DNA of 64,000 nt from Candidatus Saccharimonadia bacterium (lineage in GTDB: Bacteria; Patescibacteriota; SICC01). Location: positions 219,406-283,405 of the forward strand of contig JANWJF010000001.1 in the NCBI GenBank assembly GCA_025449535.1, given 5' to 3'. This document shows, piece after piece, positions 51,892 through 55,150 of this stretch (positions within the stretch are counted from its first letter, which is position 1; each line of letters starts with the position of its first letter). The notes beneath the pieces were generated by a model. That model saw nothing but the letters and a program-made list of their open reading frames with translations. It did not search any database and was not told the DNA's origin. A program made the position numbers and the translations under genes.

Positions 51892-51920
51892 ATAGTACCA
51901 AAAATTTGCGCAAATGTCAA
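51892..51920 (-). promoter_or_regulatory. Consensus sigma70-like promoter for the giant gene with a palindromic spacer
   Basis: Minus strand TTGACA-N17-TACTAT. The spacer contains the perfect 10-bp palindrome TTTGCGCAAA. Sits about 45 nt upstream of the ATG at 51847. Confidence 0.5.
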
Positions 51921-52749: not shown

Positions 52750-52821
52750 GGCCCCATCGTCTAGCGGCTAGGACGCCAGGTTCTCATCCTGGAAACCGGA
52801 GTTCGATTCTCCGTGGGGTCA
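52750..52821 (+). tRNA. tRNA-Glu (CTC)
   Basis: GGCCCCATCGTCTAGCGGCTAGGACGCCAGGTTCTCATCCTGG...GGAGTTCGATTCTCCGTGGGGTCA folds as a cloverleaf with anticodon loop TTCTCAT. Confidence 0.75.
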
Positions 52822-52949
52822 CACTGTGAAGCGGCTCGGCCTTGTGCCGGGACGGTTCACATTGGTTCCATGATCGAGAGGCGGGTCCGAAGATCCGATC
52901 ATATTGATTTTGGTTGAAAAATATCCTTTACTATGGTACTTTTACTTAA

Positions 52950-52997
52950 TTTCTTTAAAGCAAAAAGTATGACCCTCTTTAAAGCAAAAAGTATGAC
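52950..52997. repeat. Perfect 2 x 24-bp direct repeat spanning the start codon of the downstream gene
   Basis: TTTAAAGCAAAAAGTATGACCC occurs twice 24 bp apart, each copy with an in-frame ATG, in a lower-GC stretch downstream of tRNA-Glu. Confidence 0.6.
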
Positions 52998-53841
52998 CCA
53001 CCCCGAACGAGGAATACATCCTGAACACTTATCCCCGGAAGAGATGCGACAAGCACTCGTCGAACACGGCTGGGAACAAGTTGCCGAAGACGGCGTTCCG
53101 TTCTTCAAGCGTGAATATCCTCGAGTCAACGAGACGCTAGGTGGCCAGGAGTGGCGCAAGATAGTCATGGGTTTTAGTCATGTAAAGGAGGGTTCCGAAC
53201 TGCCTCCCGGGCAGATGATTAGCATGGCCGGGAACGATACCGAGGCGACCGTTCAAATCGCTGGAGATTCAGAAAACAGGTCCGACCTCACTAAAGCGTT
53301 CTTGCTTGATAGGTACCTACGCAGTCAGGGTTTCGAGGAAATGGATGAGTCATTGCTGACTGACTGGTTAACGCTCAAGGGCGAGCTCGGTGCGCCAGAA
53401 CGGGAAAGCCGGGAGTTCTACGAGCAGGACCCTCGGGCAGCCGAATTGCGGGAACTATGCCTCGAAGCGATCGAGGAGTATCAAAAAGTCATCATTTCTG
53501 AAGGTACCGAAGGTCCGGCAATTGAGGCCCTGCTCGACCTCAACCAACGGATGGAAGAACTAGGCATTAAGCCTGACATGCACGCTGGCAGGAAGGCGGT
53601 AGAGCTCGTTGATCCGGTCAGTGTGGCCGAGTGGGCGGCAGGCCAGCTTCGAAACCTCCTGACCAAAGGCTATGGCTTCTCTGACCGGGTCAGGGCCCTA
53701 CTGCAGGAACACGACCTACTGGGTGGCGAGGGCGACGGTACGATGGCCATAGATACGAAAGCTTCGCCGGAAGCCGGTGACGCTGCTAACTTGGTTCAGA
53801 TACTTGACCGGCTGGCTCAGAAGCTCGGCCGAGACGATTAA
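52993..53841 (+). CDS. Hypothetical protein (about 283 aa) in a lower-GC region after tRNA-Glu
   Basis: ORF starts in either repeat copy (ATG at 52969 or 52993). Acidic helical protein with no recognised motif. Confidence 0.45.
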   Translation: MTHPERGIHPEHLSPEEMRQALVEHGWEQVAEDGVPFFKREYPRVNETLGGQEWRKIVMGFSHVKEGSELPPGQMISMAGNDTEATVQIAGDSENRSDLTKAFLLDRYLRSQGFEEMDESLLTDWLTLKGELGAPERESREFYEQDPRAAELRELCLEAIEEYQKVIISEGTEGPAIEALLDLNQRMEELGIKPDMHAGRKAVELVDPVSVAEWAAGQLRNLLTKGYGFSDRVRALLQEHDLLGGEGDGTMAIDTKASPEAGDAANLVQILDRLAQKLGRDD

Positions 53842-53900: not shown

Positions 53901-54383
53901 CTAGCAGACGACCCAGGGCTGCGAGCCGTGCTTGGCGTACAGTTCCTGCGCGAACTTGTCCTGTACGCTCGCAGGAGCGTCTCCGGCGCGCTGGTAGCCA
54001 CCATAGCCGCCCCAGGTGCCGTTCAGCACCTGATACGCGCCTGAGGCAGTGCTACTGGGGTTCTGGGCGCGATAATCGCCGCCCGACTCGCGCTGCTTGA
54101 TCACGTCCAGGCCGCAACCGCCTCCGCCACCGCCGGATGACTGTTGGACGGCCGGCTGCGCGACCGCTTCCGGTTCGGGCTGGACCTTCACGACCTTGCG
54201 GACGACGATCGGATCGACCTTCGACGCTTCCACTGCCGCCGGGTTGAGGTCCGGCACGTTGGCGACGAACCCTTGGCTCGCGGCCGCGTCGGCACCGGTG
54301 GACCCGAGACTCAGGACGGCAGCGGCAAGTACCGCTCCGCCGCGGCCTAATTTCGAAATCGTTTTGCTGTGTAGTGTTTTCAT
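53901..54383 (-). CDS. Secreted transglycosylase-like protein (Rpf/SLT-like domain)
   Basis: Signal peptide; C-terminal CGLDVIKQRESGGDYRAQNPSSTASGAYQVLNGTWGGYGGY. Strong SD AAGGAGG before the ATG at 54383. Confidence 0.65.
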   Translation of the reverse strand: MKTLHSKTISKLGRGGAVLAAAVLSLGSTGADAAASQGFVANVPDLNPAAVEASKVDPIVVRKVVKVQPEPEAVAQPAVQQSSGGGGGGCGLDVIKQRESGGDYRAQNPSSTASGAYQVLNGTWGGYGGYQRAGDAPASVQDKFAQELYAKHGSQPWVVC

Positions 54384-54415
54384 GGAGGGACCTCCTTGAA
54401 ATACGGTTACTGACT

Positions 54416-54442
54416 AAAAAACGTGTGCTCAAAGCGCACACG
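54416..54442 (-). terminator. Attenuator-like intrinsic terminator in the 5' leader of the rpf-like gene
   Basis: Minus strand CGTGTGC-GCTTTGA-GCACACG followed by TTTTTT, about 30 nt upstream of the SD. Confidence 0.45.
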
Positions 54443-54450
54443 AGTGCCAA

Positions 54451-54477
54451 CTTTAGCACAAGGTCCCAGCCTGTCAA
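54451..54477 (-). promoter_or_regulatory. Candidate promoter (TTGACA-N16-TAAAGT) within the AT-rich rpf-like leader
   Basis: Hexamers read on the minus strand; the predicted TSS falls just before the attenuator hairpin. Confidence 0.3.
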
Positions 54478-54725
54478 GAAATACGTGTTTTTTGCTTGGT
54501 TTAGATGTTTTTTAATCATTTTACGTATGCCTGGAATAATTTTTCGCTTAAATCGTGCGTGCGGCCTTAAAACACGCCCAATCCGACCCCGCCGGACCCT
54601 CCCGGACTGTGGAGAACTCGCCATACGCAAAAACCAAAAAAGACTTGGATAAGCCAAATATGATGTTTGTTGACAATGCCGGATAATCCCCGATTCCGAC
54701 GGTCGCACGCCGGAGTTGGAGTATG

Positions 54726-54750
54726 AAAAACCCCGCTCAGCGGGGTTTTT
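54726..54750. terminator. Bidirectional intrinsic terminator
   Basis: AAAAA-CCCCGC-TCA-GCGGGG-TTTTT, 12 nt past the stop of the 54767..55150 gene. Confidence 0.7.
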
Positions 54751-54766
54751 CACGTATATACGGGAC

Positions 54767-55150
54767 CTAGGCGCGGGAACGGCGCGTTTCGGGCGCGAAT
54801 CCCACGTACAGCGACGCCAGCGCGATCGCGAGGTGGAGATAGTTGTCCGCCGGGTTCACCGTGATGAAGCCGAGGATCTCCGTGCTGCCGCCGAGGAAGC
54901 CAAGGATGGCGATGATGCCAAAGACGACGCCGAAGACCTGGGCGTACGAGCGGGCGTGGCCCTTCCCGGCCACGGCGGCCACGATGCCGACCAGACCAGC
55001 CAGCAGAAGGACGACGCTGTGGCCCGCGCTCACCGCGAATACGCCCAGCAGCTGCTCATCAGGCGTCAGCGCCGGGATGAAGCCCAGTACGCCGATGACT
55101 GCCAGGACGATGCCGAGCGCCAAGACGAATTGCTTAGCCATGCGTATCAC
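54767..55150 (-). CDS. Small four-TM membrane protein (DUF4383-like)
   Basis: MAKQFVLALGIVLAVIGVLGFIP... repeated Gly-rich helices. Confidence 0.55.
   Translation of the reverse strand: MIRMAKQFVLALGIVLAVIGVLGFIPALTPDEQLLGVFAVSAGHSVVLLLAGLVGIVAAVAGKGHARSYAQVFGVVFGIIAILGFLGGSTEILGFITVNPADNYLHLAIALASLYVGFAPETRRSRA

Follow-up and report, generated by a model that had tools for sequence, protein, structure and literature searches.

A conserved promoter and abutting terminator-type hairpin upstream of an Rpf-type transglycosylase gene in Candidatus Saccharimonadia, a candidate promoter-proximal attenuator

In Actinobacteria, cyclic-di-AMP riboswitches of the ydaO type precede rpf genes and genes for cell-wall hydrolases. 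Promoter-proximal attenuation is known from pyrG of Bacillus subtilis and a 5' stabilizing stem-loop from the phi10 leader of phage T7, while the geometry that defines an intrinsic terminator is a hairpin touching a U-run. To our knowledge, almost no gene-regulatory elements have been characterized in the Patescibacteria (CPR).

The 5' UTR of rpfB in M. tuberculosis holds a transcriptionally regulated RNA switch, and the degradation of the wall by Rpf proteins has been argued to demand tight control (PMC6009663); this switch has been proposed to sense B12 (bioRxiv 10.1101/2024.07.19.603033). Start-site switching governs pyrC and pyrD in E. coli and Salmonella, where, in the case of pyrC, the choice between a C start 6-7 nt past the -10 element and a downstream G start decides whether a 5' hairpin forms (PMC6524683). 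Reiterative transcription has been described for pyrG (bioRxiv 10.1101/732214). RppH requires at least 2-3 unpaired 5' nucleotides, and 5' stabilizing stem-loops are known from ompA, papA and aprE (PMC3997798). In Patescibacteria, the proteins for which an action on the host envelope has been proposed include lytic transglycosylases (PMC11665869).

The gene considered here, from an uncultured ultrasmall bacterium, lies in a window of 64,000 nucleotides (64 kb), the whole stretch of DNA that was analyzed. It resembles genes under ydaO-yuaA (RF00379) control in that a PF06737/Rpf-type wall hydrolase gene is preceded by an intrinsic-terminator-type hairpin, the form that the ydaO expression platform takes. 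It differs in that no covariance-model match was obtained, even at E<=10 on the leader, that no conserved aptamer-sized structure is present and only 0-3 nt are predicted to precede the hairpin, and that the host is a Patescibacteria MAG and not an actinobacterium. With rpfB of M. tuberculosis it would share a lineage-restricted transcriptional attenuator in an rpf leader and the tight control of a self-damaging hydrolase, whereas here the hairpin is predicted to be transcribed first, with no sensing domain ahead of it; this comparison was made by description, the Rfam search having returned nothing.

The gene and the conserved unit upstream of it

The features of the gene and its leader are as follows.

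53901..54383, minus strand: Rpf-type/transglycosylase-like gene, a 160-aa ORF with a PF06737 domain
54376..54404, minus strand: second hairpin (HP2), in which GGAG of the SD core pairs with CUCC and a further pairing, UUUCA to UGAAA, takes in the AUG
54391..54397, minus strand: Shine-Dalgarno sequence (SD) AAGGAGG, 7 nt ahead of the ATG at 54383
54398..54415, minus strand: A/U-rich linker AGUCAGUAACCGUAUUUC, holding a semi-conserved AGUUAGUAA-like motif
54416..54421, minus strand: U-run of six T, abutting the stem of the first hairpin
54422..54442, minus strand: first hairpin (HP1), CGTGTGC-GCTTTGA-GCACACG, a 7-bp stem (CGUGUGC/GCACACG) with a 7-nt loop
54443..54449, minus strand: gap between the -10 hexamer and the HP1 stem, TGGCACT, the predicted start region
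54450..54477, minus strand: sigma-70-type promoter P1
54478..54500, minus strand: A-rich, UP-element-like tract AAGCAAAAAAC..., directly upstream of the -35 hexamer, seen in the alignment

The 160-aa product consists of an N-terminal signal-peptide-like segment and a C-terminal domain that matched PF06737 in a Pfam search (E 6e-13, 49.7 bits vs a cut-off of 27). The catalytic domains of RpfE and RpfC align with it end to end; residues 92-160 cover the whole domain of RpfE (4cge) and keep its ESGG motif, at a weak E-value of 2e-3. This motif is the site of the catalytic glutamate in Rpf enzymes. The preliminary description had called the gene Rpf/transglycosylase-like, an assignment that the PF06737 match and the RpfE/RpfC alignment bear out. 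Because the NCBIfam RpfC equivalog model gave only 23 bits, far under its cut-off of 200 bits, the protein is classed as a member of the PF06737 family and not as an RpfC orthologue. A search for homologues returned 87, the closest of which carry a Patescibacteria label. The product is potentially autolytic and is predicted to be secreted. The flanks downstream of the gene differ between all lineages, and a syntenic regulator gene is absent.

Promoter P1 was recognized by a motif scan and by the occurrence of the same architecture in 10 lineages. It is composed of a -35 hexamer TTGACA (54477-54472), a 16-nt spacer, an extended -10 TGC (54458-54456) and a -10 hexamer TAAAGT (54455-54450), and it matches consensus at 10 of the 12 hexamer positions in addition to the extended -10 TG. 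The combination TTGACA with TGnTAnnnT occurs twice in 64 kb vs 0.01 expected, and P1 was the sole promoter-like site reported by a promoter scan of the leader region. The gap between the -10 hexamer and the HP1 stem is exactly 7 nt in all 10 lineages, including L019, where it reads TCTCTCT and differs at 5 of 7 bases. Counting from the -10 hexamer, positions 6-8 are pyrimidines and position 9 is a G, the second base of the stem, in every lineage (10/10). Based on the usual spacing between the -10 element and the start, the transcript is predicted to begin 0-3 nt before HP1 and to have a leader of about 60 nt. The A-rich tract, which may act as an UP element, is semi-conserved and is replaced by a T-tract in L004, L008 and L009.

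The HP1 pattern matched once in the window and in 0 of 100 shuffles. Its folding energy is -11.4 kcal/mol (z = -3.2), and the stem, in which 5 of 7 bp are G-C, has a value of -10 to -11 kcal/mol. When both strands of the 64 kb were scanned for a perfect-stem hairpin followed by at least five T, only 3 loci were found: HP1, the terminator at 54726-54750 (on both strands) and a marginal hairpin at 406, which at -6.0 kcal/mol lies right at the filter threshold. HP1 is a G+C-rich stem-loop followed by at least five U, as expected of a terminator, an arrangement that all 11 sequences share.

The orthologue set comprises 10 independent lineages with 58-83% protein identity, all of which contain a compact unit, TTGACA-N16-TGnTA(A/T)AGT, exactly 7 nt, CGTGTGC, a 5-7-nt loop, GCACACG and T5-7, that continues into a linker of ~20 nt and then a consensus SD. 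Two further homologues, L020 and L018, are contig-truncated; the latter (40% identity) retains the 3' arm and the T-run (ATTTTT). A run of T5-T7 is seen in 10/10 lineages and in the partial L018 sequence. Pairwise identity is 94-96% in the -35 and TGn/-10 elements and 45% in the spacer, 96-100% in the arms of HP1 and 49% in its loop, which is 5-7 nt long and has a conserved AGA on its 3' side; HP1 of L004 is without the closing 3' G. Most lineages have a linker of 18-21 nt, while that of L001 measures 39 nt, and the GGAGG of the SD is conserved in 9/10 lineages, L019 having GAGAGG. HP2 (-9.6 kcal/mol, z = -2.1) is found in 8/10 lineages, L004 and L019 being without it, and appears in the RNAalifold consensus with little covariation. 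Because promoter, hairpin and U-run are kept in every recovered orthologue, a cis-regulatory role for this small, lineage-specific control element is likely. The stem of HP1 showed no covariation among the orthologues (RNAalifold), and the comparative data therefore do not prove pairing.

The element appears to be confined to this locus. A scan of 185,579 species genomes (GTDB) for TCGTGTGC-N5-8-GAGCACAC-N0-1-TTTT found it only at this locus, in one related MAG; a JGI metagenome scan gave 5 unrelated chance matches, in which the loops were longer and neither the promoter nor the gene was nearby, and an IMG/VR scan gave 2 matches, both unrelated, all of these distribution scans having been for exact patterns. 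The distant homologue L021 stands in a phage-like context and is without the leader. A repeated promoter-hairpin cassette was considered and rejected, since the hairpin is single in the window and the other strong promoters in the window and at related loci have no 5' hairpin. As a conserved and well-delimited promoter and leader of ~90 bp, the unit is a candidate strong native promoter/leader for genetic tools in Patescibacteria.

The riboswitch question

Further upstream, the alignment and the neighboring gene define four more features.

54608..54616, minus strand: DnaA-box-like 9-mer TTCTCCACA, from the alignment of orthologues
54650..54675, minus strand: conserved block TGTCAA-N14-GGCTTA, from the alignment, present in 6/8 lineages
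54726..54750, both strands: bidirectional intrinsic terminator of the DUF4383 gene, AAAAACCCCGC-TGA-GCGGGGTTTTT, with A5 and T5 flanks
54767..55150, minus strand: DUF4383 membrane protein, the upstream neighbor by domain match and synteny, which ends the preceding transcription unit

The preliminary description proposed a leader of ~340 nt with a promoter, a terminator-like attenuator and a candidate riboswitch, the aptamer of which might lie in the 200 nt that precede the hairpin. The motifs that it named, TTGACA-N16-TAAAGT, the 7-bp hairpin with U6 and the AAGGAGG SD, are all in place and above chance, and the promoter and the terminator-like hairpin are real and conserved. The length of the leader did not hold: P1 lies only 7 nt upstream of HP1, so that the proposed leader is mostly DNA upstream of the promoter. 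By the same token, the stretch assigned to an aptamer lies upstream of the conserved P1 and thus outside the P1 transcript with its predicted start. An alternative fold of the antiterminator type finds no space either, because with at most 3 nt predicted ahead of the stem, no sequence that competes with the 5' arm would be transcribed before the terminator. With the predicted start, an aptamer or antiterminator upstream of HP1 is excluded for want of room.

Covariance-model searches led to the same view. Neither RF00379 nor any other Rfam model matched the leader at gathering score or at E<=10, the only matches at gathering score in the 64-kb window were two tRNAs, and the 9 orthologous loci gave no match at E<=0.5, RF00379 included. 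Weak matches to RsmY, Trp-leader, rimP and rnk all fell over the DUF4383 terminator, far under their gathering scores; that to RsmY reached 23 bits vs a gathering score of 57, with the aligned identity mostly over the terminator stem. RNAalifold returned HP1 and HP2 from sets of 8 and of 10 orthologues, and from the 8-sequence set two minor stems as well: a weak 5-bp stem, the sole helix conserved further upstream, and a stem of 4 bp (GTGC/GCAC) across the -10, upstream of the predicted start. A single-sequence fold of the whole region (z = -1.4) was not better than shuffles. No Rfam match and no conserved upstream structure were the findings that the preliminary description had itself named as speaking against its riboswitch, and the leader, judged from sequence, is not a ligand-sensing RNA. 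The lesson is that AT-rich DNA and a terminator-like hairpin ahead of an rpf gene are insufficient for calling a ydaO riboswitch. The locus may instead serve to examine how, without one, a wall hydrolase is kept in check.

Possible roles of the promoter-proximal hairpin

In the preferred reading, to which a probability of roughly 0.4 is given, HP1 is an intrinsic terminator close to the promoter. It would throttle an Rpf-type transglycosylase that is potentially autolytic, and the level of read-through would be fixed at or near initiation. The near-consensus extended -10 promoter would fire 0-3 nt upstream of the invariant 7-bp stem-loop, and a terminator-type hairpin with an abutting U5-7 would sit right at the 5' end of the RNA. 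In the default state, many of the transcripts would stop at about +28 to +31, and these early stops would throttle the strong promoter of the gene. How many read through might be decided by a trans-acting factor that recognizes the stem with its invariant sequence or the conserved AGA at the 3' side of the loop, or else by the choice of start nucleotide. Read-through mRNAs would retain HP1 as a 5'-terminal protective structure and, in most lineages, would also have HP2 occluding the SD and AUG. A start-site- or factor-dependent terminator flush with its promoter would be an unusually minimal attenuator.

Several observations argue for this attenuator. Conservation is sharply focal, resting on the -35/-10 elements and HP1 arms and not on the spacer, loop or upstream region; T5-7 directly follows the stem in each of the 10 lineages and also in L018; the loop varies in length between fixed arms, as suits an RNA hairpin; HP1-type sites are rare in sequence of 64.5% GC; the element is gene-specific, as judged by the promoters of the window, the related loci and the genome scan; and attenuation in rpf leaders has a precedent (PMC6009663). 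Against it, start, termination and read-through are all predictions from sequence, HP1 makes a modest terminator (a stem of 7 bp, 5-7 nt in the loop and about -10.5 kcal/mol), and there is no obvious need for a fixed 7-nt spacing to the stem, which a 5'-end-protective hairpin or an operator would fit better. No candidate trans factor for HP1 was found. Furthermore, the stem sequence of the neighboring DUF4383 terminator varies between orthologues while that of HP1 is fixed, which implies that HP1 is constrained beyond simple hairpin formation; together with the lack of covariation, this extra constraint is left unexplained by the attenuator model.

The fixed spacing is readily accommodated if P1 and HP1 form a high-expression leader in which HP1 is a 5'-terminal stem-loop that stabilizes the mRNA against 5'-end-dependent decay, the U/A-rich linker and consensus SD maximize translation, and the U-run causes negligible or at most incidental termination. 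This explanation, the main rival, is rather unlikely. The gap of 7 nt in 10/10 lineages leaves a predicted 0-3 unpaired 5' nucleotides, as protective hairpins require, and the -35, extended -10, A-tract and AAGGAGG are all near consensus, which would suit a highly expressed secreted enzyme of a kind proposed as a host-attack factor in Patescibacteria (PMC11665869). A hairpin a few (here predicted) nucleotides from the 5' end, an A/U-rich segment and a strong SD are likewise found in the ompA, papA, aprE and phi10 leaders, but the hairpins there are without an abutting U-run, and the pure U5-7 that touches the stem in all 11 sequences would remain unexplained, since a nascent hairpin followed by U6 is expected to terminate at least in part. 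A stabilizer should also covary freely, whereas the arms are invariant, and an SD-occluding HP2 speaks against simple maximal expression. We know of no case in which the stem-loops of ompA, papA, aprE or phi10 are sequence-invariant between distant orthologues. If HP1 were only a 5' stabilizer, the finding would be an ordinary one. Invariant arms without compensatory change and a fixed distance to the -10 hexamer would also be expected of a DNA operator, the palindrome CGTGTGC-N5-7-GCACACG (about +1 to +22) binding a repressor dimer, which would block transcription from P1 at initiation or in early elongation. Repressor sites typically overlap the transcription start, as the palindrome does the predicted start. 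Nevertheless, an operator is very unlikely: a half-site spacer of 5, 6 or 7 bp implies a rotation of up to about 70 degrees, rarely tolerated by dimers, so that the variable loop between fixed arms suits a hairpin in RNA rather than a DNA site for a dimer; the conserved adjoining T-run is unexplained; and the lineage-variable downstream flanks offer no syntenic regulator gene.

A terminator could, alternatively, be set by the start site itself, pyrimidine starts (6-8 nt past the -10) terminating and G9 starts reading through, although this is improbable. With pyrimidine starts, the hairpin would contain its closing C-G pair, next to the U-run, and transcription would terminate, while G9 starts would yield a blunt 6-bp 5' hairpin set apart from the U-run and thereby read-through and a stable mRNA. 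As in pyrC, the 5' arm of the hairpin begins within the window of possible, here predicted, start sites, with pyrimidines at 6-8 and G9 in 10/10 lineages. In contrast to pyrC, where the hairpin hides the ribosome-binding site, HP1 abuts a U-run; there is no start homopolymer as in pyrG, the gene is unrelated to the nucleotide metabolism of pyrC, pyrD and pyrG, and in L004, without the closing 3' G, a start-site switch would change nothing. If true, this would be an aptamer-free, protein-free and NTP-pool-sensing attenuator of a cell-wall hydrolase in an episymbiotic ultrasmall bacterium, merging pyrC-type start-site switching with intrinsic termination, a combination of which we know no described example. 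Least probable is that HP1 terminates a separate upstream transcript, an sRNA or a long leader from an unrecognized promoter near TGTCAA...GGCTTA, with P1 as a second, internal promoter; the riboswitch of the preliminary description is one version of this. The intergenic region keeps a length of 295-393 nt, also in L016, which has a different gene on the other strand as its upstream neighbor, two short conserved blocks lie upstream, and riboswitches precede rpf genes elsewhere (ydaO and the rpfB switch, PMC6009663). However, the window leader and 9 orthologous loci gave no Rfam match, and no conserved upstream helix (RNAalifold) or significant fold (z = -1.4) was obtained. The ~280-nt upstream region shows 37% identity between orthologues with large indels, L001 having ~190 extra nt and both L001 and L017 being without one conserved block. 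The promoter scan gave P1 only, and direct reading of TGTCAA-N17-CTTAxx as an upstream promoter P2 found no register that combines the essential A-11 and T-7.

Composition and minor features of the intergenic DNA

The region 54384..54720 has a GC content of 0.475 vs a window mean of 0.645. The claim that it is the most AT-rich stretch holds at scales of 200 nt and 337 nt, at which the lowest-GC windows are 54348-54547 (0.395) and 54349-54685 (0.439), and fails at 100 nt, where 52897-52996 (GC 0.26) is more AT-rich than the leader region. The bidirectional terminator at 54726..54750 was correctly described, whereas the small RNA suggested to end there (54750) on the plus strand has neither a plus-strand promoter nor conservation.

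Other candidates in this region were set aside. A reverse-strand TTGACAG lacks a -10 partner on direct reading of the sequence, and a sigma-54 reading of TGGCAC-N-TGC is 1 base short in the GG-to-GC spacing and has TT/TG in place of GG in half of the orthologues. A second inverted repeat across the -10 (GTGC-N8-GCAC) depends on a C that is not conserved (C, G or A), and a 42-aa leader-peptide ORF (54548..54676, minus strand) sits in the unconserved, indel-rich part. An oriC was rejected on the basis of a single good DnaA box, no DnaA Walker motif in the window and a cumulative GC-skew minimum at 45.5 kb; the intergenic region has one DnaA box with at most 1 mismatch and two with 2 mismatches, a density no higher than elsewhere in the window. 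In 7/9 lineages, the distance from the DnaA-box-like 9-mer down to the -35 hexamer is 132-139 nt, and its core TCCACA is invariant in all orthologues, L019 having a perfect TTATCCACA.

The transglycosylase gene and its 5' flank

The 160-aa product of the transglycosylase-like gene combines a signal-peptide-like N-terminal segment with a C-terminal transglycosylase-like domain (PF06737; E 6e-13, 49.7 bits versus a cut-off of 27). Its residues 92-160 match the full length of the RpfE and RpfC catalytic domains, with the ESGG motif kept and weak E-values of ~2e-3, in agreement with the preliminary description of an Rpf/transglycosylase-like gene. Its closest relatives in the database carry the label Patescibacteria group bacterium, so the window is a fragment of a high-GC (64.5%) CPR genome and not of an actinobacterium. 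Orthologous loci, gathered via protein homologues and then the contigs encoding them, revealed a gene order kept in several lineages: yidC, a Band_7 gene, a small ORF, a 142-aa ORF, a PolB-like exonuclease, DUF4383, the intergenic region and the transglycosylase.

The intergenic region (54384..54766, 383 nt) has a GC content of 0.475 over the interval previously called the most AT-rich stretch of the window. Of all 200-nt and 337-nt segments of the 64 kb, those lowest in GC fall here, so that this claim holds at those scales and fails at 100 nt, where the minimum lies at 52897-52996 (GC 0.26). The features of interest are:

53901..54383, minus strand: transglycosylase-like ORF, 160 aa (ORF list)
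54477-54450, minus strand: promoter P1, TTGACA (54477-54472), 16 nt, TAAAGT (54455-54450), with an extended -10 TG (consensus scan)
54442-54422, minus strand: hairpin HP1, CGTGTGC-GCTTTGA-GCACACG, then T6 (same scan; its sole terminator-like site)

P1 was the single promoter found by the consensus scan of 2 kb. All features listed in the preliminary description are real, and the promoter hexamers and the 7-bp hairpin with its T-run occur above chance: the window has a single match to the HP1 pattern and 100 shuffles have none, and the strong promoter pattern occurred twice versus 0.01 expected.

The proposal that this leader houses a ydaO-type or other riboswitch is refuted. With gathering thresholds, Rfam cmscan returned two tRNAs and nothing else for the entire window; permissive scans found no riboswitch in 54300-54850 (E<=10) or in nine orthologous loci (E<=0.5). 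In the former, weak matches were left over the bidirectional terminator of the DUF4383 gene, e.g., RsmY at 23 bits versus a gathering score of 57. Upstream of the promoter, pairwise identity is 37%, with large indels; RNAalifold and two alignments (A1, A2) revealed no conserved helix there except one weak 5-bp stem, and the 356-nt whole-region fold was no better than shuffles (z = -1.4). Lack of an Rfam hit and lack of conserved structure in homologous leaders are the two computational outcomes that the preliminary description had named as refuting its proposal. Membership in RF00379 (ydaO-yuaA) or another Rfam family was ruled out because the defining features were sought and are absent.

A promoter-hairpin unit in ten lineages

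Ten independent lineages were compared (the window, L022, L001, L016, L017, L007, L004, L008, L009 and L019; protein identity to the window 58-83%), and all ten share one unit: TTGACA, a 16-nt spacer ending TGn, TA(A/T)AGT, exactly 7 nt, CGTGTGC, a loop of 5, 6 or 7 nt with variable sequence, GCACACG and T5-T7. The final G of GCACACG is missing in L004. In L018 (40% identity), whose contig ends inside the loop, GCACACG-A-TTTTT and the linker motif are still present.

Pairwise identity by segment of the unit
-35 hexamer + flank: 94%
Promoter spacer: 45%
TGn + -10 hexamer: 96%
7-nt gap: 88%
HP1 5' arm: 100%
HP1 loop: 49%
HP1 3' arm: 96%
U-run: 84%
Linker: 50%
SD to start codon: 75%

Spacing is kept where sequence is not: the gap reads TCTCTCT in L019 versus TGGCACT in the window, with 5 of 7 bases changed and the length still 7. 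Past the -10 hexamer, every lineage has pyrimidines at positions 6-8, followed at position 9 by a G that is the second base of the stem. Assuming normal -10-to-start spacing, transcription would begin 0-3 nt before the HP1 stem or at this G, which predicts a leader of ~60 nt and leaves the 200 nt previously considered for an aptamer upstream of the conserved promoter, outside the transcript. In eight lineages a second hairpin, pairing GGAG/CUCC and UUUCA/UGAAA, covers the SD and AUG; it is missing in L004 and L019.

A strict terminator scan of both strands of 1-64000 (stems perfect over 5 bp or more, loops of 3-8 nt, T5+ no further than 2 nt away, <=-6 kcal/mol) yielded three loci: HP1, the DUF4383 terminator (54726-54750) and a marginal site at 406. 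Canonical intrinsic terminators thus appear to be very scarce in this genome. Two of the three loci bracket the intergenic region described here. The sole exact match to the HP1 pattern among 185,579 species genomes was a related MAG already in the ortholog set, and scans of JGI metagenomes and IMG/VR gave unrelated chance matches only; the element is present in one copy, at this gene only, and within a narrow clade. No 5' hairpin was found at other strong extended -10 promoters (window 51920- and 52914+; L001 6127; L004 3868). These near-consensus promoters (the first spanning 51892-51920) read TG(G/A)TAyTAT, and ~5-12 nt past the -10 hexamer they carry AATTT(T/C)C, a candidate for a motif shared by the initially transcribed or leader sequences of this clade's promoters.

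Possible modes of action of HP1

The HP1 arms show neither G-U pairs nor compensatory changes across orthologues, whereas the DUF4383 terminator stem varies (CCCCGC/GCGGGG, CCCCGT.../GCGGGG and, in L019, GGACTGACC/GGTCAGTCC), which points to a sequence-level constraint on HP1 beyond pairing. This could reflect a trans-acting factor, or a 5' arm that also serves as the initially transcribed sequence. The U-run always touching the stem is the signature of an intrinsic terminator, rare in this genome, while the stem always lying 7 nt past the -10 hexamer is that of a structure required at the very 5' end. The reading that we favor, at a probability of about 0.4, is that HP1 is a promoter-proximal attenuator: it would terminate transcription close to the promoter, the read-through share would be fixed at or near initiation, and the hairpin retained on read-through mRNA would protect it. 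A precedent is attenuation in the rpfB leader of Mycobacterium tuberculosis, where the reason given is that Rpfs may kill the cell that makes them (PMC6009663). The fixed 7-nt distance suits a plain 5' stabilizer inside a high-expression leader, a somewhat unlikely reading for which 5' hairpins and 5'-end-dependent decay provide background (PMC3997798).

In pyrC/pyrD start-site switching, formation of a 5' hairpin depends on whether transcripts start with C, 6-7 nt past the -10 hexamer, or with G further downstream (PMC6524683). Because the HP1 locus likewise always offers pyrimidines at 6-8 and then G at 9, HP1 might be a terminator dependent on start-site choice, but L004, without the closing G, weakens this improbable reading. 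Less probable still is a DNA operator: the loop varies in length (5, 6 or 7 nt), which favors a hairpin in RNA over a site bound by a dimer. Least likely, given that no Rfam match and but one weak upstream stem were found, is an upstream transcript or long leader ending at HP1, riboswitch version included. The element is predicted to work like a leader attenuator or 5' hairpin, as a lineage-specific cis-acting element, and the unit is well defined in a poorly studied phylum.

Upstream DNA blocks and neighboring genes

Two short blocks are embedded in otherwise unconserved upstream DNA:

54616-54608, minus strand: DnaA-box-like 9-mer TTCTCCACA (consensus over orthologues, T(T/C)(C/A)TCCACA)
54675-54650, minus strand: TGTCAA-N14-GGCTTA (6 of 8 lineages; absent from L001 and L017)

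All orthologous intergenic regions share the core TCCACA unchanged (L019 568-576, a perfect TTATCCACA; L008 2768; L009 2770; L007 912; L016 280; L017 48; L001 2688), and in seven of nine lineages 132-139 nt of unconserved DNA separate the 9-mer from the -35 hexamer downstream of it. DnaA boxes with at most one mismatch number two in the whole 64 kb. An origin at these blocks was rejected because there is no box cluster, dnaA gene or skew turn, and the 9-mer is probably a regulator site. No convincing promoter was found on either strand of the second block. Both blocks are most simply read as putative binding sites for regulators of P1.

Each lineage compared has different sequence 3' of the transglycosylase gene, with toxin-antitoxin pairs (L001), a LysM protein (L004) or a sortase (L007) beyond it. 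An opposite-strand tRNA gene lies ~60-580 nt past it in L001 (3581-3652), L019 (1372-1443) and L022 (1173-1217). L021 (1-3919) encodes a 49%-identical homologue (P0016) amid >15 short, overlapping, same-strand ORFs without Pfam matches, a phage-like context in which the promoter-hairpin leader is missing. The window's counterpart of the tRNA gene (52750-52821, +) is parted from the transglycosylase gene by a 302-aa ORF (52933-53841) of lower GC (~0.55) and without Pfam or NCBIfam match, which suggests a ~1-kb insertion beside the tRNA. The stretch 52897-53000 (+) carries a promoter-like TTGAAA-N17-TGGTACTTT, and a 23-nt unit, CTTTAAAGCAAAAAGTATGACCC, occurs there twice in tandem, at the start of this ORF.
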